This document shows, in pieces, positions 18,910 to 36,637 of a stretch of 64,000 bases of DNA. Position 1 is the first letter of the stretch. Each line of letters begins with the position of its first letter. This DNA comes from an uncultured Anaerolineales bacterium (GTDB taxonomy: Bacteria; Chloroflexota; Anaerolineae; Anaerolineales; UBA11858). The notes below the pieces were generated by a model that made no database searches, was not told where the DNA came from, and worked only from the letters and a program-made list of their open reading frames with translations. Position numbers and translations under genes: made by a program. The stretch covers positions 5,936 to 69,935 of the forward strand of contig CAYWIC010000002.1 of assembly GCA_964458115.1 (NCBI GenBank), given 5' to 3'.

Positions 18910-20874
18910 TTATGGGTAATATATGCCAATAATTTCGGTTTCAGCCAAAGCTTTACCTCGAATTGCCTGCTTGAGAGGGATTTTCATCACGCCATCCTCT
19001 AGATCGAGGGTTGTGTCCAGCGCATAAAGCCTAAAGCGATATTGGTGGGATTTGGGAGGCGGGCAGGGGCCCATGTAGCCCAGGGCCAAGCGATTGTTTG
19101 TGCCGTGTTGACTGCCGTCGTCAAAATGCGCTGATGGTGGAACTCCCTCTGGAAGAGAGCGGGTATCAGGGGGAATGTTGAATAGCAGCCAGTGTGTGAG
19201 ATTATCATCGGCGGAGAGATCCTCAACGACGAGAACGAGGCTCGCGGTACCATCAGGGGGCTCTCCCCACTCGAGGGGTGGAGAAATATCCTTGTCGTCG
19301 CAGGTATAGGTGACGGGGATTACTTCCCCATCTCCGAAAGCCGGGCTGCTTATCTGGAAAACGGATGGATCAGTGATTGATGTGGTATCAGAAGATTCTG
19401 TATCCAAAGGGATTTCGTACATGTGCCCTGCGCCGCCTTCGACATAATCTTCGTCGTAGAATGAAGCGAAAACCTGGATTTGCTCTTCGCCAGTACAATG
19501 AGCGGGTGTTATTTTTCCGACATCCATCCCGCGGAAAAGCCCGGCGATGTCACGCACAGAATCTGCGGCCATTCCCCCAAGATGGAAGCCACCCATCACC
19601 CAGGCGATATCATCATCGAAAAGGCTCTTGGTTTTTCGTACCATGCTCAAGATGCCGGGATGCGCGCAGCCGGTGATGAGCACTACCCCCTGTTCTGTCT
19701 GGATGATCAAACCTTGCTCAGGGATCGTGCTGCCAAGCTGCCCAGTTGAGTATATTCCTGGAACAATTTCGATATGTTCGCTGACAGTCACCAGGTCCGT
19801 CTTTGCCCGGATACTATTTTTGATATTTTCTGGGAAGGATTCAGGTGCATAGACAGGAGGCGTGATCCCCAAATCCAATACTTCGTCCAATCCTCCGATA
19901 TGATCGAGATGTTCGTGGGAGAGCACGACGATATCGACCTCAGTCAGATCAATTCCCAAAATCTCAGCATTTCCTTTGAGAATCTCCCCGTTGTGACCTG
20001 TATCAAAAAGGATGGAATGCTCCCCGGTCTCTATCAATGCGGAGAAACCCCAATCAGAGGTCAGGCGAGTGTCGAAACTGGTGTTGTCATATAGGTAAGT
20101 GATGCGTATCGGTTGCACCCCACTCGCTTCGATAGCCTTCTCTTCCAATAGAGTTTGCAATATGGTCTCGCCAAATTCCCTTGATGTCGGTGGCCCCCCG
20201 GCGGTGATGATATTCCCATCTCTCTCGACGCGCGCTTTGGTACAGGTTGCTCCATTGGCTTCGAGAATACTGCATGTATCAGCGGGATTCACCATGGTGG
20301 CGTTTTTGCCCTCTAAGATGCCCGCTTCAACCAGAATCCTGACCCCGTTACAGATCGCGGCCACAACGATATTCTCATCCAGCGCCCTGTGAATAAGATC
20401 GTGGACTTCTTCTGATCTTGTGTAGTATAAAGGGTTGTCGAGAGAGCCAACGAAAATGATGGCATCATAATCGGCTGGGTTAGCTTCTGTGAGGATTAAA
20501 CTGGGTTTCACTTTCGTCGCCCCATCCAAGCCAGTGATTTGCTCCAAACTCGGCCCGCCAACAAAAACACGATACCCCGCGGCCTCGAGCAATTTGCGAG
20601 GTGCGCCGTACTCTGTGGTTTCAAAACCGGAGCTGACAGTCATCAACACGCTGCAGGTTCGCTCATCCGAAGGTTGGCATTGAGGAATTGGTGTTGGGCT
20701 TGACTGGATTGTTCTTGTGGGTGTTGGAGAAATGGTGCTTGTTAATGTTGGGTGAGGCGTTGACGTATTTGGTGCAATTTCAGTATTGGCGGAGGGATTG
20801 GTTGTGACATTGGCACTCGTGCAGCCGGACGTCAATATTAGGATTGTTGATAACAGAATGAGAATTTTCTGCAT
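18910..20874 (-). CDS. Lipoprotein fusion: DJ-1/PfpI + MBL-fold hydrolase + YbhB/YbcL (PEBP) domain
   Basis: Lipobox TSGC; DJ-1 motifs GFETTE and AICNG; MBL SHEHLDH/TGCAH/GGFHL/HCTG; PEBP SPPLEW, THW, YMGPCPP, HQYRF. Confidence 0.85.
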   Translation of the reverse strand: MQKILILLSTILILTSGCTSANVTTNPSANTEIAPNTSTPHPTLTSTISPTPTRTIQSSPTPIPQCQPSDERTCSVLMTVSSGFETTEYGAPRKLLEAAGYRVFVGGPSLEQITGLDGATKVKPSLILTEANPADYDAIIFVGSLDNPLYYTRSEEVHDLIHRALDENIVVAAICNGVRILVEAGILEGKNATMVNPADTCSILEANGATCTKARVERDGNIITAGGPPTSREFGETILQTLLEEKAIEASGVQPIRITYLYDNTSFDTRLTSDWGFSALIETGEHSILFDTGHNGEILKGNAEILGIDLTEVDIVVLSHEHLDHIGGLDEVLDLGITPPVYAPESFPENIKNSIRAKTDLVTVSEHIEIVPGIYSTGQLGSTIPEQGLIIQTEQGVVLITGCAHPGILSMVRKTKSLFDDDIAWVMGGFHLGGMAADSVRDIAGLFRGMDVGKITPAHCTGEEQIQVFASFYDEDYVEGGAGHMYEIPLDTESSDTTSITDPSVFQISSPAFGDGEVIPVTYTCDDKDISPPLEWGEPPDGTASLVLVVEDLSADDNLTHWLLFNIPPDTRSLPEGVPPSAHFDDGSQHGTNNRLALGYMGPCPPPKSHQYRFRLYALDTTLDLEDGVMKIPLKQAIRGKALAETEIIGIYYP

Positions 20875-20894
20875 TGCTATTCTCCCTTTTAGTT

Positions 20895-22376
20895 CTAAGG
20901 CAACGTCCAGCTCTCCATTTCTTCACGGAATACAACTGCATCAGGGAAGTTGGTTTCCATTAGATCATAATTTGGCTGGATAGTCGAATATTCATAGTGC
21001 ATCGGGATCAGGGTATCGGCATGGAATCCTTCTGCGAGGAGTTGGTGATCTGTCTCATGAATTAGTGAGAAGTGAGGCACGAATGCTACATCGATGTTCT
21101 TTTCGGGCAAATCATAGTTTTGGAAATAGCGAATGCTGACATCGTTTGTGGAGATATCGCCGGTGTGGAAGTATCGGTGCCCTCCAACGGTAAGGATGAA
21201 TCCCAGATTGAGTATGCCCCCACCATGCGAGATGTGTATGGCCTCCACGCCAATCTCGTTGACGATCCCTGCCCAGCGTCCGCCCCTATTGATATTGATT
21301 GATATGATTTGGTCGCGATATTCTTCCGCTTGAGGGATAGTGGCTGTTGCTTCGAAGGATGAGATAAAAATCGCTTCAGGGTGGTTTTCCAGGACTTGAC
21401 GCACTAGTCCATTGCTGAAGTGGTCTGCGTGGTTATGTGTTGCTAAGATGAGATCAACCCCATCGAAAGGTGGTTCCCCGTTGATGATGGCATTGGTGAC
21501 CTCTTCAGGGGGCGCGTATCCCGGTGGAAAACCATGAAAGAGGGAGTCGATGATGATCTTCTTTTCCCCGGCGGTGATCAGAAATCCGGCGTTGCCAACA
21601 TAGGTGACACTGCTCTCGATACCGGTATCATCCATCACCCAGAATTTGACCTCTTTGGCATCGCAGGCTACTTCGGGATCACAAGCTTCGAAATGCACCA
21701 TCTCAGCGCCGCGCCAATCAGAACTGGGAGGTGAAATGGATACATTGTCTTCGGCCATCTCCACCGTTAGCTGGCCCTCGCTAGCGATTGTCCAACTGAT
21801 TTCTTCAACAGCATGATCTTCGTCTATGGCCGCTTTCGATAGTTTAATTTCTGGAAAAGGCTCATTTGGGAGGATAACTTGATCGACGACTTGAATGATC
21901 GGTGGGTCATTCTCGGCCACAATAGTGAAGGCAATCTCTACAGAGTCGCAGGCTCCATCAGGGTCACAGGCCTGGATTTGCAGACTTTCTGATCCAGTCC
22001 AATCCGCGTCTGGGGGTGTGACCATCAAGATACTGCCCAACAGGCGCGTTCGAAGCTCCTCGTTGCCAGAGATTTCCCAGCGGATGCGCGTTACAGGATA
22101 GTTGGCGTCGGTGACATAATCACTCAGTTTGATCTGTTCGAAGCGCTCACCATCGGAGATGGATTGATCCGTCAATCCGGCGATCACCGGGGGAACATTT
22201 TCTACAACTTCTGTTGGAGGAGCTTCTTCCTGGGATGTTTCTAGATGTGGTTGCGCGGTCAGCTCTTGTGTAAGAGTGGGTAATTGAGCTGCACTGTTAC
22301 AACTCCCCATCAGATAACCGCCGAAAATGATTAGTAGTAGGCTAAACGGCTTTTTCATTTTGTGTCCTGATTTCAT
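20895..22376 (-). CDS. Lipoprotein with two Ig/cadherin-like repeats and C-terminal MBL-fold hydrolase
   Basis: Lipobox MGSC; two ~95-aa repeats (N.PP.I...W.G.E....ACDP..AC); YVGNAGF, THNHADH, PMHY. Confidence 0.8.
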   Translation of the reverse strand: MKSGHKMKKPFSLLLIIFGGYLMGSCNSAAQLPTLTQELTAQPHLETSQEEAPPTEVVENVPPVIAGLTDQSISDGERFEQIKLSDYVTDANYPVTRIRWEISGNEELRTRLLGSILMVTPPDADWTGSESLQIQACDPDGACDSVEIAFTIVAENDPPIIQVVDQVILPNEPFPEIKLSKAAIDEDHAVEEISWTIASEGQLTVEMAEDNVSISPPSSDWRGAEMVHFEACDPEVACDAKEVKFWVMDDTGIESSVTYVGNAGFLITAGEKKIIIDSLFHGFPPGYAPPEEVTNAIINGEPPFDGVDLILATHNHADHFSNGLVRQVLENHPEAIFISSFEATATIPQAEEYRDQIISININRGGRWAGIVNEIGVEAIHISHGGGILNLGFILTVGGHRYFHTGDISTNDVSIRYFQNYDLPEKNIDVAFVPHFSLIHETDHQLLAEGFHADTLIPMHYEYSTIQPNYDLMETNFPDAVVFREEMESWTLP

Positions 22377-23605: not shown

Positions 23606-26539
23606 TTATTCGAAAAGCATCTTGCCAATCTCATCGCGGATCGCTCTGATGTCGGTTGTCTCCCGATTGCAAAGCACGATTATCGTGGATTTCGAAACTG
23701 GAAAACGTTCAATCATGGTGACGAACCCATCCCCGCCGCCCCCATGCCAGATGGCGCGTTGAGTGTGCTTTTTTCCCAAGAACCATCCATAGCCGTACCC
23801 CCCGATGGGAGTTTCCGTATACGATGTGAATATGCTGTCCAAAATATTTTGAGGAATGAGCGTTGTGGAATAGAGAGCCTGGTCCCAAAGATACATATCT
23901 TCGACGGTGGAGTAAAGCGCGCCCGCGGCATAGGGGATGGACATATCCACATAATCTGCATCACGCCAGGCTGTTCCATGACCAGCATATCCCTTGGCAA
24001 TATCCTCCAAATTATGATCGTAGCCACTATCCATCATCTGCAACGGCTCAAAAATATTTTCTTTGATGAAAGCGTCATATGTCTGGCCAGAAACTTGTTC
24101 AATGATATAGCCCAAGATGATATATCCCGAATTGCTGTATTCCCATTGGCTACCCGGAGTGAAATCGAGTTCCAAAGGTGCGAAGCGCGCTATGGTTTCG
24201 AGCGGAGTTGTTGGGAAATCGTCAGTCTCTTCGTAATCGTCAAAATCTGTGAAGTTTGGAATTCCCGAAATATGGGTTAGCAGATGATGTAAGGTGATTT
24301 TTCCCCAGTTTACTGGGCATTCAGTAATGTAGTTGCAGATGTTGTCATCGACATTGAGCGCCCCTTGATCTTGCAAGATCATGATTCCCATGGCCGTGAA
24401 TTGCTTGGTGACAGAAGCCAGCCGAAATTTGGTTTTCGATGAATTTGCAATATTATTTTCGCGGTCTGTAAAACCATAGCCTTTGCTGAGGATGACATCC
24501 CCATTCTGAGCGACCAGAATCGCCCCTGAAAAGCGGTTATTCTCAGTCAGGGAATTGACAAACACATCGATTTCAGAGGCGAGTTCGTCCTTATGCCCAA
24601 TTGAAGCTTCTGGCGAGTTGGCATCGATAAATTCCTCCACTCGCTGTTCGAGGATCTCCAGCGGCAAGCTGCCATTTCCGATGACCACATTGTGGAATTC
24701 TTTGATATCAAATTTCTCACCGAGGGCATCCATGACCTGCTGGCGCAGCTCTAGGATCTTTAACATGCCGACCTTGTATCCTGTGGCCTGGGCGGGGAGC
24801 ACAATGTAGCGATCGATCTCATGGTAGTACCATCCCCTTTTGGTTGGCATGGCCTGATCCATATATCCTTGGGCTTCTGCACGCGTCCAGCCCATGGCAT
24901 GGATGCCGGTATCTACTACCAGGCGCACGGCGCGCAGCAGTTCATATTGCAGACGACCAAGATTTCCGTAGGGGCTATCGTCGTATAAACCCATTTCCCA
25001 GGCCAGCCGTTCGGCATAGAGCGCCCAACCCTCGACATACCCGTTGAAATGGATGAAATTGCGAAAAGCTGGCAGATCCAACTCTTGGGCCAGGGCGATC
25101 TGATAATGGTGCCCCGGGATAGTTTCGTGATACGCGATGGTTTGGGCCGAATATTTGGGTCGGTACCCGCCACCGGTGCTGACATGATACGAACCAGGCC
25201 TGGAGCCATCGGGAGTGCCAGGGACATAGTACCCACCCATCGGTCCTCCCAGAACAACCACCTCACCACGCGGGCGCAGATCGAAGAGCTCGCTCACGCG
25301 CGTGTCGGCTTCATCAATGATCCTTTCGATGCTGTGGATGTAATTCGCCTGGCTACTGGGTGAGTTGACATCGTAATATCCTGCCACATCGATGGCTAGC
25401 TGGAAGTTCTCACGTAAGCTGGCCTCTTCGGGGTATTCCAACTCGATCAGAGCCTGGCGCATTTCTTCCTGGATGCGCTCAACCTCAGCCAACCCTAGTG
25501 CGTGGATCTGCTGCGGGGTTAGGTCGGTGCTGGTTTCCTGGCGCAGCATATAGGCGTAGTACGCCTCACCATTGGGCAGCTTCCATGCCCCCGCATCGGT
25601 TGTGGACAGCGGTAACAGGTGATCCTGGTATTCGATCAGCTTGATAAAAGCTGGAATGAGCGACACCTCGATCGCGCCGCGCGCCGCTTCACGGAAGGCA
25701 GTCTTTTCTTGGTCGCTCAACCCGGGGATCCCCTCGATCTCTTCGTCAAAACGAGTGTAAACGCGCAGCGATTTGGTGTTAACTTGCATTTCGACCGAAT
25801 ATATTCCCAGGTAATTGAGCAGTTCACCCTTGGTGAGCGTCAGGATGAAATCCGGTGGGATGATGCCCATTTCTTCCCGAATTTGCAGTCCCTCCATCAG
25901 CTGGTTGACCTGAGTGCTGACCTTGGAGAGTCTGGCGATATAATCTTCAGCGTTCGCGCGGGTCTTGAGCGGGTGTACCTCAGTCAGCAGGTTGTCCAAC
26001 TCAAAGTGATAGCTGCCGATAAAATGCGTTAAGGGGTAATTGTGGTACATGAACTCGTGGCCGTGCACCTGGTTATCCAAATACCAGGCATAGACATCGT
26101 AGGAAATCTGTTGTTCGGGGGTCAGGGAGTCCTGATCGTACGCGCGTAATCGCTCCAAAATTCCTGTTTCCAACTTCTGTGTGTCGCGCAGATACGCATC
26201 GGAGAGGTTGTTAAGTTGATCATCGCGCAGCCCGAATAATGCCGATACCCCCGCATGGGTCAGCCCCTCTGGATTGCGGAGTGAAAGCTGGTTGAAGGAT
26301 TGCTCGAAGAAGGCGTCGATTGAGAGGCCTTGTAAGGAATTAAGAATCTCCACCACTGTTCTCTCGGGCGGCGTTTCTGACTCAGAGTTTAGCTTGGTCG
26401 GTGTTTCCTGAACTGGGTTCTCAGCTTTAGGGCTGGCTGTTACTGTGTGCTCTGACGAAATGGTTTCTGATGAACACCCTGAAGAAAAAGTCCCCAGCAG
26501 GATTATCCCCAGGGTAGCAATATAATTCCCTATTTTCAT
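23606..26539 (-). CDS. DUF885 + serine hydrolase (beta-lactamase family) fusion lipoprotein
   Basis: Lipobox SSGC; DUF885 motifs HETIPGHH, EGWALYAE, LVVDTGIH; then SVTK, YSN, HGG. Confidence 0.88.
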   Translation of the reverse strand: MKIGNYIATLGIILLGTFSSGCSSETISSEHTVTASPKAENPVQETPTKLNSESETPPERTVVEILNSLQGLSIDAFFEQSFNQLSLRNPEGLTHAGVSALFGLRDDQLNNLSDAYLRDTQKLETGILERLRAYDQDSLTPEQQISYDVYAWYLDNQVHGHEFMYHNYPLTHFIGSYHFELDNLLTEVHPLKTRANAEDYIARLSKVSTQVNQLMEGLQIREEMGIIPPDFILTLTKGELLNYLGIYSVEMQVNTKSLRVYTRFDEEIEGIPGLSDQEKTAFREAARGAIEVSLIPAFIKLIEYQDHLLPLSTTDAGAWKLPNGEAYYAYMLRQETSTDLTPQQIHALGLAEVERIQEEMRQALIELEYPEEASLRENFQLAIDVAGYYDVNSPSSQANYIHSIERIIDEADTRVSELFDLRPRGEVVVLGGPMGGYYVPGTPDGSRPGSYHVSTGGGYRPKYSAQTIAYHETIPGHHYQIALAQELDLPAFRNFIHFNGYVEGWALYAERLAWEMGLYDDSPYGNLGRLQYELLRAVRLVVDTGIHAMGWTRAEAQGYMDQAMPTKRGWYYHEIDRYIVLPAQATGYKVGMLKILELRQQVMDALGEKFDIKEFHNVVIGNGSLPLEILEQRVEEFIDANSPEASIGHKDELASEIDVFVNSLTENNRFSGAILVAQNGDVILSKGYGFTDRENNIANSSKTKFRLASVTKQFTAMGIMILQDQGALNVDDNICNYITECPVNWGKITLHHLLTHISGIPNFTDFDDYEETDDFPTTPLETIARFAPLELDFTPGSQWEYSNSGYIILGYIIEQVSGQTYDAFIKENIFEPLQMMDSGYDHNLEDIAKGYAGHGTAWRDADYVDMSIPYAAGALYSTVEDMYLWDQALYSTTLIPQNILDSIFTSYTETPIGGYGYGWFLGKKHTQRAIWHGGGGDGFVTMIERFPVSKSTIIVLCNRETTDIRAIRDEIGKMLFE

Positions 26540-26621: not shown

Positions 26622-26674
26622 CCAGATTTAGGGGTGAGTGGGGTACGGAGCACCCCACTCACCCCTAAATCTGG
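26622..26674. repeat. Long intergenic palindrome (family A, copy 3)
   Basis: 23-bp stem CCAGATTTAGGGGTGAGTGGGGT / ACCCCACTCACCCCTAAATCTGG, one A.C mismatch, C-GGA-G loop. Nested in an outer imperfect IR at 26589-26708. Confidence 0.95.
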
Positions 26675-26724: not shown

Positions 26725-27666
26725 TTACTTATTCAACAGCCCTGAAAGAAAAGTTTCAACCAATTGCATAGATTCATCGCTCTTGGCGATGGTCTGGTGG
26801 GTGCCGCCTGGGATGATATGCAGTTCAACAGATACTCCGGCATTTTCCAATACTTGGGCGAAGGCTCGAGATTGGGAGGGGAGAATAGTATTGTCATTGC
26901 CACCATGGAGCAGCAAAAAGGGTGGCTCGCTCCCATCAATGGCATTGATCGCGGAACCCGCAACCCATTTTTCCTGGTCCTTTCCAAAGAGCATGATCAC
27001 GTATTCTTCATGGGCAGGAGTACTCTCAACAAAACTTTCATAATCGAAGATACCCGTAAGGGCTGCAACTCCCTGGATCCAATTGTCTTCGGGTAAGGAA
27101 TGTGGGCAATCGTTCATGAATTCTGCAGGATCATCTGTGACGCCCAGTAAGGTGACCAATGTGCCCCCTTCAGAATGCCCCATTGTGAAAATATTTTCGG
27201 TATCCAGTCCATAGCCATCTTTGTTGGTGTGCAGCCATGCCAAAGCGCAAAATGTATCCGAAACCATTTCCAAATGACCAAAATCCGGTGTACCTCGGTG
27301 ATTGATGGATACCGTGGCGTAACCTTTCTCGGCGAAGGTGCGCGCCCAAAAAGCGAGCTGTTCTTTGGTTCCACCGCCGGCATGGATCATTAGGATCACA
27401 GGATAGGGCGGTTCGGATAAATTGGGAAGGTAGATATCCAGCTTGTGTTTGACGCCTGAATCAGGGATATACAAAATGTTCTTGGTTACTTCAACTGGTT
27501 TGATCGTTGGGGTGATTGTGGGTGAAATCTCCGCAGTAGGGGATGGTGCCGGTGTTGTAGGTGTTGGTGGAGTAATCTCTGGCTTAGGTGTACAGCCACA
27601 TAAAATAAAGACTATTGTCAGCATGATCGCTGTTGGAAAGATTGCTTTGCGCATATTTGGCATCAC
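26725..27666 (-). CDS. Alpha/beta hydrolase (carboxylesterase, BD-FAE-like) lipoprotein
   Basis: Lipobox LCGC, P/T linker, IHAGGG, GHSEG, HGGND, GTH. Confidence 0.88.
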   Translation of the reverse strand: MMPNMRKAIFPTAIMLTIVFILCGCTPKPEITPPTPTTPAPSPTAEISPTITPTIKPVEVTKNILYIPDSGVKHKLDIYLPNLSEPPYPVILMIHAGGGTKEQLAFWARTFAEKGYATVSINHRGTPDFGHLEMVSDTFCALAWLHTNKDGYGLDTENIFTMGHSEGGTLVTLLGVTDDPAEFMNDCPHSLPEDNWIQGVAALTGIFDYESFVESTPAHEEYVIMLFGKDQEKWVAGSAINAIDGSEPPFLLLHGGNDNTILPSQSRAFAQVLENAGVSVELHIIPGGTHQTIAKSDESMQLVETFLSGLLNK

Positions 27667-29994
27667 TCATTCAGAGAAGTAGTATTCATCGGGTTGGTTA
27701 TCAGTGAAAGTATTTGTACCGATCTGCTCGACGAGTTCGGGGTCCGGTGTTTTCAGCCAGATTCCCCCACCGACATCCTCAGCAATATTATCTTTGAAAT
27801 AGTTGTCAGTTAAAGATGCATTTATGGCTGCCTGCCCATACAATCCAGCGCCAGAAGTGGCTCGATTGCCCGTAAAATGATTCAGTTCGACACGCACTTG
27901 GTTATTCCCCAGGATGTGAACACCCCCTCCGAATTGGGCCTCATTCTGGGTGATCTGATTGTCCCGGATCTCGGTAGCGATCGCCCCGCTGACATCGATA
28001 CCCCCACCTTCCATCCCAGCTTTATTTTGGCTGATCAAGTTATCTTCGATGATCAGCGTGGATTCAATCTCTATGAATATCCCCCCACCGAATCCGGCCT
28101 GATTATGCGTGATTTCATTTCCGATTACCGTGACCAGCACATTTGCCCCGGCGAAGAGGCCTCCGCCTCCCGCCTGGCTGAGGTTATCTGTGATGATATT
28201 GTCTAATACTGTAACTGTGGAATGATTGAAGATCATGACCCCCGCTCCGGATTGTGCTGAATTATTGGTAACAGTATTCCCTTTGATCGTCGGAGCAGCA
28301 CCCCAATCGATGAGCATGCCCCCGCCTGTTTCGGCTTGATTCCCCTCGACGAAATTGCCTCCGAGGGTGGGAGCGGATCCATCCACAATGTAAAGTGCCC
28401 CTCCACCCAGAGCCCGATTGTCGCGCAAGGTGTTATTCCGGATGATAGGATAGGAGCCACTTGCTATATAAATTGCGCCTCCCCCATGGGTGACTTGGTT
28501 GTCAATGATGACATTGTTTTCGATCAACGGCCAAGATCGATTTTCGACAACAATACCGCCGCCACAATGTCTGATTGTGTCTTGGGTGTCGAAAACCCCT
28601 CTTCGGCAAGTTTGGATTTCGCCCTCTTCAGAAGCCTGTTGATATTCTGTCCCGCTTCCATTGGTGATGGTAAAACCCAGTACATGCGCTTTGATGGTTT
28701 CGCCGTTTTGAAAGGTGATTACACTCCCACTTCCGCCGCCGTCAAGGATGGTGGCATTCACGATGTCTGGATCCTCGGGATCCCAGCTGCGGAGGGTGAT
28801 ATTCACCCCATTGAAGTTGATGTTTTCCTGGTAGGTGCCCGGAGCAACTATTATCTCATCCCCCTCTTCGGAGGAGTCGATGGCTTCCTGAATGGTCGCG
28901 TAATCTTCAGGCACATGGATTGCGGCTGACACTGGCATTGGCATCCAGTCAATTCCTGAGTTCATGTCGAGAGATAAACCTGCATCTATAGGTTGGACAT
29001 CGCTTCCATCACTCGACATCAAGTAGAGGGCATATCTCCCCTCACGGTTTGATATGAAAGCGATTCGATCTCCCCCTGGAGACCATACCGGCCACCAATC
29101 CTTTCTGTCGTTGTCGGTTAGCTGTTGGATATTCTCCCCCTTTGTGTCCATCACATAGATTTCGAAATCTCCATCTTGATCGGATACATATAGGATTTTT
29201 GAGCCATCCGGTGACCAGTTTGGACCCGCTTCAGAGACATCATTTTTTGTGATCACACGCTGGTTATGTCCATCAATATCCATCATATAGATATCATCAT
29301 CGCCGTCGCGCGGGGACATGAAGATAATGTGCTCTCCATCGGGGGACCATGCTGGCCAGGCGTCGTAGACATCGTTGTCAGTGAGCACTCGTTTATCCCC
29401 CCCATCAGAATTCATGATCACGATCTCCGAATCGGCTCCTCGTTGAGATGAATATACGATATTACTTCCTGTGGGTGACCAGGCAGGTTCGTATTCCCCT
29501 ATGCCTGTTGCAATCGCGTTTTGATCCGTGCCATCTGAGTTCATCACATAAATCCCCCAGGAATCACTCCGGTCTGACATGAAGACGATTTGTTCCCCAT
29601 CTGGCGACCAGGATGGCCAGCTATCTTTGGAGTCATTGTCTGTAAGTTGGCGTACGTCGCCGCCGTCGGCATTCATGAGATAGATCTCGTAGTCGCCGTC
29701 ATGTTTGGAAGCTATTGCCAAAACTCCGCCTCCGCTCCCGCTGAGTGGGGGAAAGGCCATTACTGTGGGAGTCGGTGAAATATCCTGTTTTTGAGTGTTT
29801 TCTGGTGGAATGATCGTAACAGTTGCTTCTGTCTCTTCGATTTTCAGATCAGTGAATTGAGTAGAGTCAGTGGGGGATTTGTCCGAAACTAGGGAACAAC
29901 CATACAGGAGCGTGTTCAATAGCACGAGTAGAGCCGAACTAAATTTCCAAGCAAAGGTCAGAGAGAATTCCCGCCCGGTCGATTTGATAGGCAT
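27667..29994 (-). CDS. TolB-like PD40 beta-propeller + right-handed parallel beta-helix lipoprotein
   Basis: Lipobox LYGC; five PxWSPDG repeats; VPEDYATIQEAID then repeated GGG...N.I..N.A units. Confidence 0.85.
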   Translation of the reverse strand: MPIKSTGREFSLTFAWKFSSALLVLLNTLLYGCSLVSDKSPTDSTQFTDLKIEETEATVTIIPPENTQKQDISPTPTVMAFPPLSGSGGGVLAIASKHDGDYEIYLMNADGGDVRQLTDNDSKDSWPSWSPDGEQIVFMSDRSDSWGIYVMNSDGTDQNAIATGIGEYEPAWSPTGSNIVYSSQRGADSEIVIMNSDGGDKRVLTDNDVYDAWPAWSPDGEHIIFMSPRDGDDDIYMMDIDGHNQRVITKNDVSEAGPNWSPDGSKILYVSDQDGDFEIYVMDTKGENIQQLTDNDRKDWWPVWSPGGDRIAFISNREGRYALYLMSSDGSDVQPIDAGLSLDMNSGIDWMPMPVSAAIHVPEDYATIQEAIDSSEEGDEIIVAPGTYQENINFNGVNITLRSWDPEDPDIVNATILDGGGSGSVITFQNGETIKAHVLGFTITNGSGTEYQQASEEGEIQTCRRGVFDTQDTIRHCGGGIVVENRSWPLIENNVIIDNQVTHGGGAIYIASGSYPIIRNNTLRDNRALGGGALYIVDGSAPTLGGNFVEGNQAETGGGMLIDWGAAPTIKGNTVTNNSAQSGAGVMIFNHSTVTVLDNIITDNLSQAGGGGLFAGANVLVTVIGNEITHNQAGFGGGIFIEIESTLIIEDNLISQNKAGMEGGGIDVSGAIATEIRDNQITQNEAQFGGGVHILGNNQVRVELNHFTGNRATSGAGLYGQAAINASLTDNYFKDNIAEDVGGGIWLKTPDPELVEQIGTNTFTDNQPDEYYFSE

Positions 29995-30068
29995 GTATTG
30001 AGCTCCTCCCCCCAATATTCAGGTTGCTATTTTGAACAGTGACCCAGTCAATGTGGTTTCATTATTCG

Positions 30069-30680
30069 TTAGATTTCTCGATTTGGGAAGAAAAGTTCTT
30101 GGATCTCGATGTTAAGCCCGGCACTTGTTTCGGGTACACCAGCGAGCGAAGTGTTCAACTGGCGGCGTAAGTTTTCACGGCCATAGTGAAGGTGTGATTT
30201 CACCGTTCCTGGCGAACACGCTAAAATGGTTGACATTTCATCGATGTTCAGCGCATTGTAATAATGCAACACTACGACGACGCGTTGCTGGATCTCTAGG
30301 TTTGCCAAGGCATTGATCAATGCCCCTGGCGATTGAATTACGTTTTTGGAATCGTTAAAAAATCCATCAGCAAGCTGGCGCTGCCAGTCCATGGTCAATG
30401 GCCAGCGCTGGCGTTGTTTGGCCCAATCGGCTGCCTTGTGCGTAGCTTCTCGAATCAACCAATGATTTACCGAATTCGACCTATCGAATGTATGGATACT
30501 ACCATTTAATTCGAGAAAACATTCCTGGAGAACCTTTTCAGCTGCTGCCTGGTTACAGGTGATGGCCAGCGCAGTGCGATACACAATGGAGTTGTAACGA
30601 TCGTAGAGTTCCCCCAATGCCTCCAAGTCACCAGCTCTGAGTCGCAGGATCAATAATTCATCTTGATCTAAGGTAGGCAT
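30069..30680 (-). CDS. ECF-type RNA polymerase sigma factor
   Basis: GDLEALGELYDRY, region 2 QECFL/WL, region 4 EMSTILACSPGTVKSHLHYGR. Confidence 0.88.
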   Translation of the reverse strand: MPTLDQDELLILRLRAGDLEALGELYDRYNSIVYRTALAITCNQAAAEKVLQECFLELNGSIHTFDRSNSVNHWLIREATHKAADWAKQRQRWPLTMDWQRQLADGFFNDSKNVIQSPGALINALANLEIQQRVVVVLHYYNALNIDEMSTILACSPGTVKSHLHYGRENLRRQLNTSLAGVPETSAGLNIEIQELFFPNREI

Positions 30681-30801
30681 AGCGCATCCCTGTTTGGTGA
30701 AATAAATTTGAAAAAGACTCCAGGCTAAATGATATTCTCGAGCCTATCAAATTGACACGACCCCAGGGTGTTATTTGGCACCCCTCTTAAGTATGGTATA
30801 T

Positions 30802-30850
30802 GGAAAAAACACTTGCTAATTCGCGGAGCGGGGGAGCAAGTGTTTTTTCC
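30802..30850. repeat. Long intergenic palindrome (family A, copy 4)
   Basis: GGAAAAAACACTTGCT...AGCAAGTGTTTTTTCC around a GCGGAGC core. Confidence 0.85.
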
Positions 30851-30873
30851 AATGGATTATGTGCGAAAACGGT

Positions 30874-32655
30874 TTATGGCGCTTCGGGCATTGGATGCGC
30901 AGCGAAGAACTCCCAGATCAGGTCGTTTACAGTAACAGCAGGCTCGAATCCTCCACCGCCAAACGTCGTTGTGGGCCAGTTATGGCCATCCAAAGCCAAA
31001 GAATATAGAATCACATCGCTATCCTCCTCGCACCCTGGCCAGATGTCTGTTGTGATCACACCACCCTTGGATACGCTCTCGACTTCGGGCGAGCAGCCAT
31101 TCCTTTCCGCCCAGGCCGCAGCCCAAACGGGAATTTCTGGCACATTGACGACCCCCTCATGGTCTGTCCCCTCGTAGGGAATGACCTCGTCTCGCAGCCC
31201 ATGAAATGAGATCACCGAGATTGGCCGATCGGGGTGGCAATCTTCCCAGTAATAGTACGCGCCTCCAACAGGAGCTATCGCTGCGATTGCCTCGGAAAGG
31301 TCACACCCCAAGCGGTTTGCCATGCCACCGCCATTCGAGAAGCCTACTGCGAAAATGCGTTGGGGATCGATGCTCAGGTGGCTATTCAGATAAATAATTA
31401 AATCCTCGACAAATTGGACATCATCGACATCGGATTGAGATTCCGCCTCGGGCAGGTCTTCCCAGGTTGTGGGTGAGCCTGTTGCCTGGGGGTACGCGAC
31501 AATGAACCCGTGCTGGTTGGCAAGCGGGTTGAGTTGGAAATATATCTCAGCGTCGAACGCATTGGAGCCGCGCCCGTGGAAGACCAGCACCAATGGCATC
31601 AAGGTGCCTTGTTCATAACCTGGTGGGATGTGCAGCTTGAAGGTGCGGTCGTGTTCACCCGAAGAGATCACATCGAAATAGTCACCTGAGACAGGGTATG
31701 CAGTCTCGGAAGCTTGAGCGGTTGTATCTGGTGCTTGCACTTCAGCCAGGCTGGTTTTTGGGTGGGCGACGAAGAAATCCCAGATGACCTCGGTGGCATC
31801 CATGGCCTGGGTGGTTCCGTTAATTTCGATAGCGAACTCGGATCCCGGCCATGAGTGCCCGGCATCGGCAATGGAGTAGAGCGCTACCAGAGTATCTCCG
31901 CGGCACGCCTCCCAGGATTCCAGAGTGAGTACATCGCTAAGGCGTTGGGTAGTTGGAACGATATTACAACCATCCCGTTCACCCCAGGCTTCAACCCAAT
32001 CGTGAACCAGGGGGTTGTTCTGGTTACCCTCGTAAGGGATGATCGAATCCAAGAGCCCGTGGATGGCCAGCACCGAAACCGCGTATTGCGCTTCGCAATC
32101 GTAATAACCAACGTGCCCGCCAGAGACAGACGCGACAGCCGCTAAAATGTCCGAGCGTGAACAGGCTAGCCGGTTGGCAAAGGAGGCGCCATTCGAAAAG
32201 CCCGTGGCATAGATTCGGGTCGAGTCGATATTGAGTTCTTCCTGCAGGTGTGCCAATAATGCATCGAAGAAGGCCATATCGGGGTCGCCGATCTCGGTAG
32301 GGACTGCGCCCCACCAGGTGGGCGGATTGTCGATTGCTTGGGGCGCAACTACCACAAACCCAGCTTCATCGGCCTTGGCGTTCATCTGGGTCATCGCTTG
32401 TTGCTGAACGGCGGTCGCTGTGCGGCCGTGGAGGTTGAACACCAATGGTATCGCGTTCTCAGGCTGATAGCCGGGGGGAATATGTAACAGGAAGATGCGT
32501 TCTGTGCCATCAATGTCCAAAGTTTCAGAATAGTCGCCGGGTCCTGTGTATTTGCTTGGGGTTGGTGAAGGGGTAGGCTCCGCTGGGACCGCGGATGGGC
32601 TGCAGGCAGTCAAGGCTGCTATAAAAATGAGGAGGAATATTGTTGTGTATCTCAT
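30874..32655 (-). CDS. Tandem two-domain PHB-depolymerase/LpqC-like esterase lipoprotein
   Basis: Lipobox LTAC; two domains each with LHG/FHG, GFSNG, GHxWP. Confidence 0.88.
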   Translation of the reverse strand: MRYTTIFLLIFIAALTACSPSAVPAEPTPSPTPSKYTGPGDYSETLDIDGTERIFLLHIPPGYQPENAIPLVFNLHGRTATAVQQQAMTQMNAKADEAGFVVVAPQAIDNPPTWWGAVPTEIGDPDMAFFDALLAHLQEELNIDSTRIYATGFSNGASFANRLACSRSDILAAVASVSGGHVGYYDCEAQYAVSVLAIHGLLDSIIPYEGNQNNPLVHDWVEAWGERDGCNIVPTTQRLSDVLTLESWEACRGDTLVALYSIADAGHSWPGSEFAIEINGTTQAMDATEVIWDFFVAHPKTSLAEVQAPDTTAQASETAYPVSGDYFDVISSGEHDRTFKLHIPPGYEQGTLMPLVLVFHGRGSNAFDAEIYFQLNPLANQHGFIVAYPQATGSPTTWEDLPEAESQSDVDDVQFVEDLIIYLNSHLSIDPQRIFAVGFSNGGGMANRLGCDLSEAIAAIAPVGGAYYYWEDCHPDRPISVISFHGLRDEVIPYEGTDHEGVVNVPEIPVWAAAWAERNGCSPEVESVSKGGVITTDIWPGCEEDSDVILYSLALDGHNWPTTTFGGGGFEPAVTVNDLIWEFFAAHPMPEAP

Positions 32656-32682
32656 GAAATTTTCCTTAATCGAGTTATCGCC

Positions 32683-32713
32683 TTTTCCCGGAATCTCACA
32701 ATTTCCGGGAAAA
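32683..32713. terminator. Intergenic inverted repeat
   Basis: TTTTCCCGGAA-N9-TTCCGGGAAAA between two esterase genes. Confidence 0.5.
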
Positions 32714-32723
32714 TATTCGGTGG

Positions 32724-33677
32724 TTACTCTGATCCAACAAATCTCTTTGGATGGGATTTAAAAAAATCCCAAATGATATCAGTGGCGTACACATCAGGAG
32801 CGGGACCGTCCAGGTAGGGACCTGGCCCAAACCCTGAGCCAGGCCAGACGTGACCGCCACCTTCAATGCTGTAAAGCACCACAGTTGCATCCCCGGTGCA
32901 ATCTTCCCAGGATTCCACTTTGATGGCTGCCTGGGACTGTTCGGTCTCAGGCGTCAAAGCACATTGATTGCGCTGTGCCCAGGCTGCCACCCAGGCAGGG
33001 ACCGATGGAAGATAACCTCCATCTCCCAGGTATGGAATGATGTGGTCTTCGGTGCCATGGATAGCCAGCACAGCTACCGGGAATGCTGGCTCGCAGGTCT
33101 CCATTTGCGGATGGGCGCCCGCGACCACGGCGATAGCGGAGATCTTCTCTGACATCACACACGCCAGGCGATTGGCCATGGCCCCGCCATTTGAGAAGCC
33201 AGTCACGTAAATCCGGGCAGGATCGATGCTGTGCTGACTTTCCAGAGTGGCGATCAACTCTTCAAAGAATACCAGATCTTCCTGACCCTTTGGTCCTGGG
33301 GCTGGCCACCAGGTTGCTGGCTCTCCCAACGCCTGGGGAGTGACAACGATGAAGCCGTGTTGATCTGCCTGAAGGCTCATTTGGCTGATCTGATCATGCT
33401 GGGCGATGTCACTGCCGCGCCCGTGCAGATTGAGCACCAGAGGGTGGGGTACGCCAGACTGATATCCGGCAGGTATGTGGGTGACAAACTCCCGGTTGGT
33501 TCCGTTCACGCTGAGCGTTCCATAGTGATCCCCCGGCGGACGATGATATTCCTTTGGGATGGGAGTGTATGCTGGCTGCAGTGTAGCGATTTTCGAGGTG
33601 CTTTGGCATCCAAACATGCAAGAGCAAGCCCATGCAATGATGAGTAGTACTGGCAAATGAAGTTTACTTTTTATCAC
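32724..33677 (-). CDS. Single-domain PHB-depolymerase/LpqC-like esterase lipoprotein
   Basis: NLHG, GFSNGG, HGTED, GHVWP. N-terminal signal ending ...MFGC. Confidence 0.88.
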   Translation of the reverse strand: MIKSKLHLPVLLIIAWACSCMFGCQSTSKIATLQPAYTPIPKEYHRPPGDHYGTLSVNGTNREFVTHIPAGYQSGVPHPLVLNLHGRGSDIAQHDQISQMSLQADQHGFIVVTPQALGEPATWWPAPGPKGQEDLVFFEELIATLESQHSIDPARIYVTGFSNGGAMANRLACVMSEKISAIAVVAGAHPQMETCEPAFPVAVLAIHGTEDHIIPYLGDGGYLPSVPAWVAAWAQRNQCALTPETEQSQAAIKVESWEDCTGDATVVLYSIEGGGHVWPGSGFGPGPYLDGPAPDVYATDIIWDFFKSHPKRFVGSE

Positions 33678-33766
33678 TATCCTTTTTACCTGATCCGCAA
33701 GTATTAATCAAATTTCTGTCATCCTGAGCCGCCCAATCCGCTTCAAGTGCGTAACTCCGTATTGTT

Positions 33767-35578
33767 TCACTCTTCAGAAGACCGTGGGTTTGCCTCGAAG
33801 AACTCCCAAACCACATCCGTGGCGTTGATCTGAGATTCGACATTCTCGCGGAAAACGGCCACTGAGGAGCCTGGCCAGACATGCAGACCACCAATGCGAG
33901 AGATCAACTGGACAGTGACATCCTCATCACACCCCACCCAAGTTTCGATCTTGAGCGATGGGTCTGGATGTTCGACCTGGGGTTCGGGTTGGCAGCCGTT
34001 GCGTTGAGCCCAGTACTCCACCCAAAGGTGTACCGGAGGGACTTCGTCCCCGCGGCCTTCGTAGGGGATGGTGGGATCATCCGTGCCGTGAATGACCAGC
34101 ACAGAAACAGGACGCTCGATATTGCAGTTGGCGAAGTCGGTGTGACCGCCTGCTATCGGGGCGATTCCGGCAAAGGTCTCAGACATGAAGCAGCCCAGAG
34201 CATTGCTCATGGTGCCGCCGTTGGAAATTCCCGTAGCGTAGATGCGCGCCGGGTCGATATTGATCAAGGCTTGCAGATAGGCCATCAGCACCACAAAGAA
34301 ATCCTTATCAGCTTGGCCGTGAAGCCCTGGCAGCGGACCATGCCAGGAAGCAGGCTCTCCCAGGGCTTGCGGGTGAACGACGATAAAGCCTTCTTGATCG
34401 GCTTTGGCGTTCATACTTGTATATTCCTGCTGGTCGAACATGGTGCCGGTATAGCCATGCAAGTTGATCATCAGAGGTGTGGGGATTTCGGGGTCGTACC
34501 CGAGGGGGATGTGGACCGTGAACCAGCGCGTATAGCCATCTACGGGGAGCATATCGACGTAGTCGCCGGGATTCTGATAGCGGGCCAATAATACAGGATC
34601 GATGGTCGGTTCGGAGATGACGATATCGGACTTGGGATGCGCTTCGAAGAATTCCCAGATCACATCAGTAGCGTAAAGGTCGGGTTCCAGGCCAGCCTCG
34701 TAGGGACCAGGTCCGTAGGCTGAGCCGGGCCATTCGTGCAGCCCGCCCTTGACGGTGTAAAAGGTCACCAGGGAGTCTCCCGCACAATTACTCCAGGTTT
34801 CTTGTAGAAAGTCTTGATTGTCCTGGTCGATGCTGGGGGACAGATCACAGCCATTTGATTCGGCCCACGCTTCCACCCAGTCATGAACAGCCGGTGTATT
34901 TCGTTGCGCGTCCCCCTCAATAGGGATCGTGCCGTCATCTGTACCATGCATCACCAGCACCGAGACCGGCTTCTCCAACAGGCAGCCCCCGGAATGGGCA
35001 TTCCCGGCCGCGATGGGCGCGATAGCGGCGATCTTGTCAGACAGGATGCAGCCTAGATGGTTGGTCATCGTGCCGCCGTTGGAGATCCCGGTGATGTAGA
35101 TGCGGGCGGAGTCAATGCTCATCTCCTCGCTAAGATATTCGATCATCTCCTCGAAAAAGTGATTGTCATTGGCACTGGCTGGGCCGGAGACGGGGCCCAA
35201 CCAGGTGGCCGGTTCGTGCAGCGCTTGGGGGTAGACCAGCAGGAAGCCCGCCTGGTCGGACTTGGCGTTCATGTGGCTGCGGTTGGCTTGCCCGTGAGCC
35301 GACCCGCCAGCCCCATGCAGATTGAATAGCAGGGGAGTGAGTTCGCCGGGCTGGTAACCGGGCGGGACGTGCAGCAGAAAAGTGCGCTCCATCCCATATA
35401 CCGTGATGACAACGGTGTAGTCACCGGGGATCTGGTATTGTTGGACAATCTCGGGAGTGGTGTTTGGTTCCATGTGGGACACTTCTGTCAGCGGTTCTTC
35501 CAAATCATCAGTTGGGCTACAACCGGAAAGGAATAAAATTGCGATGCAGAGAATGATGATCAATGATTTGTGATTCAT
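33767..35578 (-). CDS. Tandem two-domain PHB-depolymerase/LpqC-like esterase lipoprotein
   Basis: Lipobox LSGC; two GISNGG nucleophile motifs, HGTDD x2, LHEWP/LHVWP. Confidence 0.88.
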   Translation of the reverse strand: MNHKSLIIILCIAILFLSGCSPTDDLEEPLTEVSHMEPNTTPEIVQQYQIPGDYTVVITVYGMERTFLLHVPPGYQPGELTPLLFNLHGAGGSAHGQANRSHMNAKSDQAGFLLVYPQALHEPATWLGPVSGPASANDNHFFEEMIEYLSEEMSIDSARIYITGISNGGTMTNHLGCILSDKIAAIAPIAAGNAHSGGCLLEKPVSVLVMHGTDDGTIPIEGDAQRNTPAVHDWVEAWAESNGCDLSPSIDQDNQDFLQETWSNCAGDSLVTFYTVKGGLHEWPGSAYGPGPYEAGLEPDLYATDVIWEFFEAHPKSDIVISEPTIDPVLLARYQNPGDYVDMLPVDGYTRWFTVHIPLGYDPEIPTPLMINLHGYTGTMFDQQEYTSMNAKADQEGFIVVHPQALGEPASWHGPLPGLHGQADKDFFVVLMAYLQALINIDPARIYATGISNGGTMSNALGCFMSETFAGIAPIAGGHTDFANCNIERPVSVLVIHGTDDPTIPYEGRGDEVPPVHLWVEYWAQRNGCQPEPQVEHPDPSLKIETWVGCDEDVTVQLISRIGGLHVWPGSSVAVFRENVESQINATDVVWEFFEANPRSSEE

Positions 35579-35641
35579 TGTAAGTGTCCTTTCTAGTGTC
35601 AATATTGTTGGAGCAGAGGAACTCCTGTGGTATGGGATATC

Positions 35642-35690
35642 CGCTGGAATATGGGGGTGATGGCGTAGCCACCACCCCCATATTCCAGCG
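35642..35690. repeat. Long intergenic palindrome (family A, copy 5)
   Basis: CGCTGGAATATGGGGGTG-A-TGGC-GTA-GCCA-C-CACCCCCATATTCCAGCG. Confidence 0.93.
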
Positions 35691-35701
35691 AAACAATCTT
35701 T

Positions 35702-36637
35702 TTAAGGTAGTGATTTTCCATCCATCGCGCAGCGGAAGCCGATGCTGTTCTCGTATTTATCCGGTAAATACCAGTTGCGGAACGGGTTGCGTGCGTGACC
35801 GCGAGCGGTGTCCCAACTGGCGCCGCGCAGCACGCGGTAGGTTTCTTTGGCGTCGGAGTTGGGATGCTCCAGCCATTCATGACCTTCATAGAGGGCATGC
35901 CAGTCCCAGTTCCACTCCCAGACGTTGCCCAGCATATCCAATGCGTCGATCCAGCTTGTGCCTGTGGGGTAATTGCCCACGGGAGATGTGTCTGCAAAGC
36001 CATCATTGCCGCTGGGGTCAGGGTGGGGCATATCGCAGTTGGCGTCACAGTAGTTGGCCAGGGTGCTATCGAACTCATTTCCCCAAGGATAGTACAGAGA
36101 ATTTGGTCCACGGGCGGCGAAAGCCCATTCAGCTTCCAAGGGCAGGCGCGCGCCAGCCCAAGTGCAATATGCCACGGCCTGATACCAGGTCACGTTGATT
36201 ACGGGAAACGCTGCAAATGCTGGATCATCATAATATGCGCTTCGTGTTCTGGAACTGTAATCCTTGGGAGCAGAACAGTGCCCGGCGTGCACGCAGAGGT
36301 CGTATTGGGCGTTGGTGACTTCGGTCTGGTCTAGCCAGAAGGCATCGACAGCCACTTGATGGTGTGGGTATTCATTCTCGTAGATCCTGACACCCATGGC
36401 TGCGCCATCATCATCTTCTGAGCCCATCAGGAAATCCCCCGCGGGAACGTAAACCATGACCATGTCATCAGCCCCTCGAGTTTGGGTGGCACCAATCTCA
36501 AATGTAATTTCCGATACCCCTTCTGTGGAAATAGGGTGTGCGGCCCGTGGTATTGTGCCACACCCACCTATCCCCAACACCAGGAGGAGAAGTATCCAAA
36601 AGCATTTGACAATCGTATCTTTCATCTTGCTATGCAT
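35702..36637 (-). CDS. FGE-sulfatase (SUMF1/EgtB/PvdO) domain lipoprotein
   Basis: Lipobox IGGC; FLMG, EVTNAQY, PVINVTW, RLPLEAEW, GNVWEW, RGASW, IGFRC. Confidence 0.9.
   Translation of the reverse strand: MHSKMKDTIVKCFWILLLLVLGIGGCGTIPRAAHPISTEGVSEITFEIGATQTRGADDMVMVYVPAGDFLMGSEDDDGAAMGVRIYENEYPHHQVAVDAFWLDQTEVTNAQYDLCVHAGHCSAPKDYSSRTRSAYYDDPAFAAFPVINVTWYQAVAYCTWAGARLPLEAEWAFAARGPNSLYYPWGNEFDSTLANYCDANCDMPHPDPSGNDGFADTSPVGNYPTGTSWIDALDMLGNVWEWNWDWHALYEGHEWLEHPNSDAKETYRVLRGASWDTARGHARNPFRNWYLPDKYENSIGFRCAMDGKSLP

Follow-up and report, generated by a model that had tools for sequence, protein, structure and literature searches.

The locus described here raises a question: does a run of genes for predicted surface lipoproteins, with a sigma factor gene in their midst, form one co-regulated system, or is it a looser assemblage whose members come and go? 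The run lies in a 64,000-nt stretch of DNA (hereafter the window) from an uncultured bacterium of the order Anaerolineales (Chloroflexota; GenBank assembly GCA_964458115.1, contig CAYWIC010000002.1, positions 5,936 to 69,935), in which the listing of open reading frames (ORFs) gives eleven consecutive genes between positions 18910 and 36697, every one on the minus strand. The start of the outermost gene is best placed at the ATG at 36637, which agrees with the end coordinate in an earlier, purely sequence-based description of the locus (the original prediction). The genes are numbered g01 to g11 by rising coordinate, that is, from 3' to 5' relative to transcription (Table 1). Oxygen-poor marine water and sediments commonly harbor Anaerolineales, and most of what is known about their attack on organic matter comes from gene counts. 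We favor, with a probability of about 0.55, the reading that the run is a lineage-specific, fast-changing exoenzyme island composed of several predicted transcription units, with the esterase gene g08 and the extracytoplasmic function (ECF) sigma factor gene g07 as its core and the other genes as accessories. The run would then be the fullest known version of a variable island, neither a single operon nor a fixed system, and the locus would represent the candidate exo-hydrolases of one lineage, predicted to be lipid-anchored, gathered in a single rapidly changing chromosomal spot.

The claim that the run consists of ten minus-strand genes with lipobox-like signal peptides, interrupted by one ECF sigma gene, was addressed with a simple rule applied to a non-overlapping ORF set of the whole window. 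The rule demands a Lys or Arg in the n-region and at least nine uncharged hydrophobic residues, with no charge among the last eight residues, followed by a lipobox that ends in Cys (pattern [LVI..][ASTG..][AGS]C). All ten non-sigma genes of the run passed, compared with 2 of the ~ 44 other genes in the window (Fisher exact p = 1.9e-9). The lipoprotein run is real and far beyond chance. Its sole interruption is indeed the sigma gene g07, and no transporter or cytoplasmic enzyme lies within it, just as the original prediction had stated; the remainder of the window encodes ordinary cytoplasmic metabolism, ATP-binding cassette (ABC) transporter components and regulators. The domains that had been named for the ten lipoproteins were all recovered with Pfam and NCBIfam, together with several that had been overlooked, namely, DJ-1/PfpI and PEBP/YbhB in g01, Big_9 in g02 and a TolB-like PD40 propeller in g06.

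The lipobox is not the default export signal of this organism because the sugar-binding (solute-binding) protein encoded at 6551-7951 carries an ordinary signal peptide without Cys. In orthologues from related metagenome-assembled genomes (MAGs), the lipobox Cys never changes, even in signal peptides that have otherwise diverged. It is followed by 31-67 tether residues with a combined Pro, Thr and Ser fraction of 0.26-0.57, and in most of the ten proteins the tether ahead of the first folded domain is rich in Pro, Thr and Ser or otherwise of low complexity. Moreover, each of the esterase domains of the LpqC type (see below) contains four Cys, which is consistent with extracellular disulfides. 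Such tethers and Cys are as expected if the proteins fold outside the cytoplasm. The ten proteins would leave the cytoplasm, receive a lipid on the +1 Cys and stay at the outer face of the cytoplasmic membrane, and they are very probably membrane-tethered extracellular enzymes with ester- or amide-cleaving folds and some functional kinship.

Is this set of genes kept together in related genomes? Seven lineages were compared: the window, L004 (88% identical to the window in g06, on a contig of 5.9 kb), L006 (75%), L007 (70%), L005 (66%) and the more distant L047 and L051/L052, with sigma protein identities of 52% and 49%, respectively. The flanks are stable in the relatives, with amine oxidase genes 79-88% and SQS/PSY (squalene synthase/phytoene synthase) genes 71-88% identical (for the FtsH-like gene, see Table 1), while the distance between the same flanks varies (window, 18.3 kb; L006, 11.8 kb; L007, 6.4 kb; L051, ~ 3.7 kb). 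All eleven genes are present in the window. L006 has g11, g10, g09, g08, the sigma gene, a g06 reduced to its beta-helix and a DUF885 gene fused to a few PD40 repeats, as well as a 34-aa remnant of g01 (85% identical) ahead of the FtsH promoter. L007 has a partial g11, g08, the sigma gene, again a g06 consisting of the beta-helix alone and two frame-shifted fragments from the C-terminus of DUF885, and L005 has g10, g08, the sigma gene, a full g06, a DUF885 gene without its PF00144 domain and g02. L047 has g08, a gene for an unrelated Abhydrolase_1/4 protein and the sigma gene, with unrelated genes after them, and in L051/L052 only g08 and the sigma gene remain, besides a collapsed remnant of g10, and the FtsH-like gene comes directly afterwards.

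Read gene by gene, the comparison gives the same picture. Orthologues of g08 are 71-88% identical and adjoin the sigma gene in 7/7 lineages. The beta-helix protein g06 occurs in five of the seven; L006 and L007 have it without the PD40 part, and L047 and L051 lack the gene altogether. Absent are g01 from L005 and L007, g02 from L006 and L007, and g10 from L007 and L047; g05 was found only in the window and L004, g09 only in the window and L006, and g03 was not seen in any relative compared. The remnants of g04 in L007, g01 in L006 and g10 in L051 all lie in place and indicate losses from a richer ancestor. To judge from these genomes, all genes but g08 and the sigma gene are individually dispensable, and the accessory genes may have been gained, fused, truncated and lost around the g08-sigma core. 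The original prediction had allowed that it would be refuted by genes that are scattered in relatives and not co-expressed, and this proved to be partly the case: the flanks and the g08-sigma pair are kept, but the other genes are variably absent or decayed. None of the more distant g06-like loci (L008-L046) has other genes of the cluster. In L006, a DUF885 lipoprotein (11287-13503) ends in PD40 where the window has PF00144, and its g06 lacks PD40; this arrangement suggests that domains were swapped between neighboring genes.

Such variability could also mean that the genes have no functional relation at all and that a deletion- and insertion-tolerant spot has collected unrelated secreted-protein genes by chance. 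The extreme differences in content between conserved flanks and the pseudogene remnants speak for this, as do the several independent transcription units predicted below and the lack of features that would mark an integrated element, namely, genes of mobile elements, tRNA genes or repeats at the flanks. However, the shared targeting signal in 10/10 genes, the g08-sigma adjacency in every lineage and the repeated fusion of the same domain families elsewhere are difficult to reconcile with mere accumulation, which we regard as very unlikely. An origin as a mobile element was considered separately and rejected, as no tRNA gene, flanking direct repeats, integrase or transposase, or clear GC break was found.

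The fusions come from related Chloroflexota. In metagenomes of this phylum, proteins homologous to g08 are commonly lipoproteins with two or three domains (P0127 has three LpqC domains), and in several of them LpqC domains are joined to DUF885 (P0196), to a formylglycine-generating enzyme (FGE)-like domain (P0166, P0164), in duplicate to PD40 (P0139) and in duplicate to the N-terminal half of a metallo-beta-lactamase (MBL) domain of the g01 type (P0126). All complete fusion proteins carry a lipobox. Shuffling is also visible within the island, where DUF885 with PF00144 in the window corresponds to DUF885 with PD40 in L006, and PD40 with the beta-helix corresponds to the beta-helix alone. Recurrent fusion points to a common location and probably to related substrates, the substrate itself not being identified by it.

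The next question is whether the run is transcribed as one unit. Hairpins of -16 to -55 kcal/mol stand exactly at four gene boundaries, after g11, g09, g08 and g05. In the whole window there are seven perfect stems of at least 11 bp, and all seven are intergenic, so that such hairpins are evidently the terminators of this organism. The genes without a hairpin between them overlap or lie 0-89 nt apart. Four boundary hairpins predict at least five transcription units, and we propose [g11], [g10-g09], [g08], [g07-g06-g05] and [g04-g03-g02-g01] as the predicted set, in which g07 would be co-transcribed at least with the beta-helix lipoprotein g06 and the esterase g05. A generic scan for intrinsic terminators and sigma-70 promoters gave counts no higher than in shuffled sequence because these long palindromes do not conform to its rules on loops and T-runs. 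The locus does not look like a single operon, with no internal terminators and a conserved gene order: it contains four hairpins and comprises 2-11 genes, depending on the lineage. Palindromes with stems of 23-24 bp and loops of 3-7 nt occur at 13713-13763, 26622-26674, 35642-35690, 60073-60124 and 61433-61483; some of them have GGGGTG/CACCCC cores, and as a group they are probably terminators or a family of elements resembling repetitive extragenic palindromes (REP).

With 64.3 bits against TIGR02937 (cut-off 42.9), the embedded sigma factor g07 falls into the ECF class (group IV). No anti-sigma gene lies beside it, and the neighboring ORFs leave no room for such a domain: downstream, a gap of 53 nt is followed by the signal peptide of g06, and upstream, a gap of 193 nt holds the g08 terminator and a promoter. 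The possibility that g06 is a hidden anti-sigma factor was rejected because the N-terminus of g06 is a signal peptide that is poorly conserved but for its invariant lipobox Cys. Beyond region 4.2, g07 has a C-terminal tail, P..G..E.FF.N.EI, which is invariant in the alignment of five orthologues. Sigma paralogues from other Anaerolineae (39-44% identity) end in a similar E-x-x-[YE]-x-F(-[TI]) motif and mostly have no obvious anti-sigma gene adjoining; at three of the four paralogue loci examined, the sigma gene lies directly upstream of Opp-type peptide ABC transporter genes. The C-terminus of g07 is encoded at 30069-30150, and a wider Anaerolineae sigma family of ~ 190-205 aa shares the short tail (members P0010, P0016, P0019, P0025, P0039, P0041 and P0062).

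The region directly upstream of g07 is unusually conserved. Some 85 nt (30715-30800) show 85-97% nucleotide identity across the seven lineages, against a mere 48-59% identity of the sigma proteins themselves, and the same element lies just upstream of the sigma gene in L004, L005, L006, L007, L047 and L051. It contains a sigma-70-like promoter site at 30758-30729 (-35-like GTGTCA, 18-nt spacer, -10-like TATCAT), preceded by ~ 45 conserved bases that include two GGGG boxes and are plausibly a binding site for a regulator. Such conservation provides evidence of careful control over the transcription of the sigma gene itself, and g07 is probably controlled at its own promoter. No Rfam family matched the block (permissive threshold, 16.8-37.2 kb scanned); a known riboswitch or leader was rejected on this ground. 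The variable positions showed no helix co-variation when inspected by eye. When the two halves of the block were sought across the window with up to three mismatches, only the original site was recovered, and a generic ECF motif, the regular expression GxAAC-N15-18-CGT, had no match upstream of the sigma gene. A comparison of five lineages revealed no motif common to the sequences ahead of g08, and short-word blastn of all intergenic regions detected conservation only upstream of the FtsH-like and sigma genes. Thus far, the intergenic sequences offer no evidence of a common control element on the other units.

These results bear directly on the original prediction, according to which one sigma-controlled, co-regulated surface system of ten lipoproteins acts together in depolymerization or detoxification. 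The single strand, the short gaps and the embedded ECF sigma gene favor it; the fusions joining LpqC to DUF885, FGE-like, PD40 and MBL domains can be counted on the same side, and so can the paralogous sigma genes beside Opp transporters, which suggest that this sigma family has a tie to uptake and exoenzyme genes. Against it stand four strong terminator-type hairpins inside the run and the lack of any common promoter or operator motif, the g08 upstream region included, which is not conserved. Furthermore, for 8 of the 10 lipoprotein genes there is at least one close relative in which the gene is missing or decayed, two lineages are reduced to g08 and the sigma gene or to these and an unrelated hydrolase, and no domain gives a specific detoxification signal. 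Co-regulation of the whole run has therefore not been borne out, only g08 and the sigma gene being kept together in relatives, detoxification finds no specific support in any domain, and the system as originally conceived is unlikely. Of the supposed ester and amide depolymerization, the sequences bear out mostly hydrolase folds, with intact motifs wherever these were checked, but no substrate can be assigned.

What, then, do the enzymes do? In the exoenzyme island that we favor, the esterase, serine-hydrolase, metallo-hydrolase and peptidase-like domains would cleave ester and amide bonds in extracellular organic matter, and the products would be imported by transporters encoded elsewhere; lipidation, surface location, the role in nutrition and how far the sigma regulon extends are all steps that we infer. 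The catalytic motifs are intact: GxSxG, Asp and His with the HG oxyanion motif in 5/5 LpqC domains; the two PF00144 domains retain SxxK, and each MBL domain has HxHxDH. Within the window, mutual paralogues (40-48% identity) are found only among the five LpqC-type domains; the two PF00144 domains, and likewise the two MBL domains, show no mutual similarity at E < 1e-5. This gives a short list of five domains of the polyhydroxybutyrate (PHB)-depolymerase/feruloyl-esterase type, two resembling penicillin-binding proteins (PBPs) and two MBL domains, which is relevant to polyester and necromass turnover.

The five LpqC domains permit a more specific proposal, namely, that the locus is dedicated to scavenging extracellular polyhydroxyalkanoate (PHA) or other polyesters, with these domains acting as tethered PHA depolymerases and the remaining proteins as accessories. 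With NF050058, g08, g09 and g10 score 299, 171 and 289 bits, all above the cut-off of 150, yet this model, named "extracellular catalytic domain type 1 scl-PHA depolymerase" (scl, short-chain-length), is only a "hypothetical equivalog"; with TIGR01840 (cut-off 107.85), g08 (120.5 bits) and g10 (121.7) lie above and g09 (69.6) below. In 5/5 domains the motif order is (N/F)LHG or FHG, then G(F/I)SNG, then HGxxD, then GHxWP or LHxWP, which agrees with the PHBase consensus order of oxyanion His followed by lipase-box Ser, Asp and His (PMC12278694), and many homologues are named "polyhydroxybutyrate depolymerase" by JGI. The lipase box is, however, GFSNG or GISNG and not GLSxG. A linker and a substrate-binding domain let the known enzymes bind PHB films (PMC12278694), and these are missing here: Pfam and NCBIfam detected no domain beyond the catalytic ones in g08-g10, and the proteins end just past the region of the catalytic His. 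Among solved structures, g09 comes closest to the feruloyl esterases 9j07 (E = 1e-32) and 8jh8, in this order; the PHB-family esterase 8daj and the compost esterase LC-Est1C rank behind them. We accordingly give little credence to a dedicated PHA function, and g08-g10 are best called PHB-depolymerase/LpqC-family carboxylesterases.

Two further functional assignments were tried and rejected. The FGE-fold protein g11 is not an FGE because the site aligned to Cys336/Cys341 of human FGE reads GASWDTARGHA, so that the Cys-x4-Cys site holds no cysteine and only the fold is in common; g11 is also matched by EgtB, PvdO and PorK/GldK-type proteins. A class C beta-lactamase was likewise dismissed, as the C-terminus of g04 reaches 64 bits against a cut-off of 415 (bla_class_C) and g03 has no match to a beta-lactamase family. 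By their domain matches, both PF00144 domains are generic serine hydrolases.

The g04 C-terminus also bears on another possibility, in which the run is an envelope maintenance or stress module that remodels or repairs the cell's own wall or sheath and does not serve feeding. It resembles AmpH-type DD-carboxypeptidases/endopeptidases (104 bits) and D-peptidases (PDB 3tg9, 4y7p, 9s7k), g06 matches TolB propellers, the FtsH-like neighbor is conserved, and ECF sigma factors classically respond to envelope stress. Nevertheless, these matches are all far under equivalog cut-offs, the PBP-like, PD40 and DUF885 parts are precisely those lost in relatives while the esterase is kept, and the FtsH-like gene belongs to the flank, set apart by its own conserved promoter. 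We judge an envelope module to be very unlikely.

Several points weigh against the exoenzyme island as well. The boundaries of its units are predicted from hairpins and spacing alone, and the locus was not found among the contigs of three metatranscriptomes of the same study, only DNA runs matching it. The lipidation call relies on a sequence rule and on conservation, and a scan that covered most genes of the window, but no other part of the genome, brought to light neither lgt nor lspA. No catalytic role has been demonstrated for the DUF885, PEBP, FGE-like, beta-helix, Big_9 and PD40 domains, so that the description "mostly hydrolases" is an overstatement of current knowledge, and the domains do not allow a specific substrate to be assigned. 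The adjacency of g08 and the sigma gene could be a mere residue of deletions and not a functional link. Finally, the relatives are MAGs, in which some absences could be errors of assembly or binning; remnants lying in place and flanks that are intact on single contigs speak against such artifacts.

Comparison with known systems places the esterases in the LpqC/PHB-depolymerase family (COG3509, PF10503, TIGR01840; CE1-type feruloyl esterases), with which they share the alpha/beta-hydrolase fold, the HG oxyanion motif, GxSxG and the order of Asp and His. LpqC of Mycobacterium tuberculosis is a lipoprotein without a polymer-binding domain, like the island esterases. The island differs from this family in the tandem catalytic domains of g08 and g10, in the array of five domains within 4.7 kb and in its Chloroflexota host. 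Extracellular scl-PHA depolymerases (PhaZ, type 1) have the same catalytic-domain family and motif order, but are secreted free, in contrast to the predicted lipid-anchored island esterases, which lack their linker and substrate-binding domain and have GFSNG or GISNG as the box.

Polysaccharide utilization loci (PULs) of Bacteroidota with ECF sigma/anti-sigma pairs likewise combine a cluster of surface-lipoprotein hydrolases with an embedded ECF sigma gene and a presumed role in extracellular polymer breakdown. In contrast to these, the island has no anti-sigma gene and no transporter of the SusC/SusD or any other type, its enzymes have esterase- and peptidase-like folds and not those of glycoside hydrolases, and it is split into several predicted units and is not conserved as a block. 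Chloroflexota are generally regarded as lacking a classical outer membrane, unlike PUL hosts. In its two-domain architecture with a short conserved C-terminal tail, g07 corresponds to "orphan" ECF sigma factors with no co-encoded anti-sigma factor, and it differs from the canonical ECF sigma/anti-sigma module in that no co-transcribed anti-sigma gene stands alongside. The regulatory extensions of ECF41, ECF42 and ECF56 are far longer than the g07 tail (~ 25 residues).

The component families are all known already, and the locus reveals a well-defined sigma factor promoter but no new mechanism; if anything novel is hidden here, it would be in the conserved promoter-operator of the sigma gene or in the invariant pairing of esterase and sigma factor. 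These could belong to a new exoenzyme-linked signaling module, in which the esterase would release or sense a cue derived from its substrate, a DNA-binding factor would bind at the conserved element, and the sigma factor would in turn induce a set of tethered hydrolases that diversifies rapidly; in parallel, the tandem domains could be new lipid-anchored PHA or polyester depolymerases that lack a binding domain and work in anoxic marine water. We consider either form of this proposal a long shot.

Table 1 Features of the proposed exoenzyme island and its flanks in the window (a slash in a lipobox precedes the Cys)
Feature	Coordinates	Strand	Details
Left flank, outside island: FtsH-like AAA metalloprotease	16920..18776	-	86-95% identical in relatives
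g01 lipoprotein: DJ-1/PfpI (PF01965) + MBL fold (PF00753, HEHLDH) + PEBP/YbhB (PF01161)	18910..20874	-	lipobox LTSG/C
g02 lipoprotein: Big_9 Ig domain(s) (PF17963) + MBL-fold hydrolase domain (PF13483, HNHADH)	20895..22376	-	lipobox LMGS/C
g03 lipoprotein: PF00144 (class C beta-lactamase/PBP-like) serine hydrolase, 84 bits	22373..23539	-	lipobox FLG/C
g04 lipoprotein: DUF885 (PF05960, 460 bits, HExxxGHH) fused to PF00144 (215 bits)	23606..26539	-	lipobox SSG/C
Perfect palindrome, 23-bp stem, after g05 (inverted repeat I2)	26622..26674	.	100% complementary, -54.5 kcal/mol
g05 lipoprotein: alpha/beta esterase, BD-FAE family (PF20434, 117 bits, GHSEG)	26725..27666	-	lipobox LCG/C
g06 lipoprotein: TolB-like PD40 propeller (PF07676) + right-handed beta-helix (PF13229)	27667..30015	-	lipobox LYG/C
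g07 ECF-type sigma factor: sigma-2 + sigma-4 regions only	30069..30680	-	PF04542, PF08281, TIGR02937
g07 promoter region, conserved	30715..30800	-	85-97% identity across 7 lineages
Terminator-like hairpin, A and T runs either side, directly after g08	30801..30851	-	-27.1 kcal/mol
g08 lipoprotein: two tandem LpqC/PHB-depolymerase-family esterase domains	30874..32655	-	lipobox LTA/C
Hairpin, 11-bp stem, after g09	32683..32713	.	-16.4 kcal/mol
g09 lipoprotein: single LpqC/PHB-depolymerase-family esterase domain	32724..33677	-	lipobox MFG/C
g10 lipoprotein: two tandem LpqC/PHB-depolymerase-family esterase domains	33767..35602	-	lipobox LSG/C
Palindrome, 23-bp stem, after g11 (inverted repeat I4); predicted terminator	35642..35690	.	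-49.7 kcal/mol
g11 lipoprotein: FGE-sulfatase fold (PF03781, 186 bits)	35702..36637	-	lipobox IGG/C
Right flank, outside island: flavin amine-oxidase/phytoene-desaturase-like gene, then SQS/PSY gene	37061..38599	+	

Some details of single genes complete the table. PDB relatives of g01 are 7dck, 3n08 and 4hcj. The stop of g03 overlaps the start of g02 by 4 nt, and its SxxK motif is SASK. In g04, the DUF885 part is structurally closest to 3o0y, a "lipoprotein" from structural genomics, the PF00144 domain has the motifs SVTK, YSN and HGG, and the PDB relatives of the C-terminus are PBP-like proteins or D-peptidases. The esterase gene g05 begins immediately past the stop of g06. The likely true start of g06 is the ATG at 29994, and its lipobox Cys is invariant in five lineages; for the beta-helix half, even a search with a 12-sequence profile gave only marginal PDB matches. 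The likely true start of g10 is the ATG at 35578. Relatives have a hairpin at the same position after g08, with a different sequence.

The FtsH-like gene of the left flank reaches 283 bits against an FtsH equivalog cut-off of 600 and has a Gly/Met-rich insertion in its AAA domain; the promoter in its upstream region (18777-18909) is 85-89% conserved. The two lipobox-positive genes outside the island lie at 44071-44829 and 55316-56152, both on the minus strand; one encodes an intradiol-dioxygenase-like protein (PF00775) with a lipoprotein signal, an unusual location for this fold, and the other is without annotation. Also outside the island, an alpha/beta hydrolase without a lipobox (42490-43449, plus strand) gave a weak match to the PETase family and is flanked by TetR-type regulators at 41825-42433 and 44903-45568.

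The closest relatives in genome collections are uncultured Anaerolineales MAGs, one of them from a depth of 150 m in the Black Sea. The DNA runs with the sequence are marine or seawater metagenomes, and short marine metagenome contigs encode the sigma protein and its neighbors with 100% identity. A contig from the run with the best match (X1) is only 90-95% identical over g09-g10 (positions 33370-33786 and 33900-34900 of the window), and 415 nt between the two genes are replaced by 460 other nt, which suggests that strains differing in the esterase array coexist.

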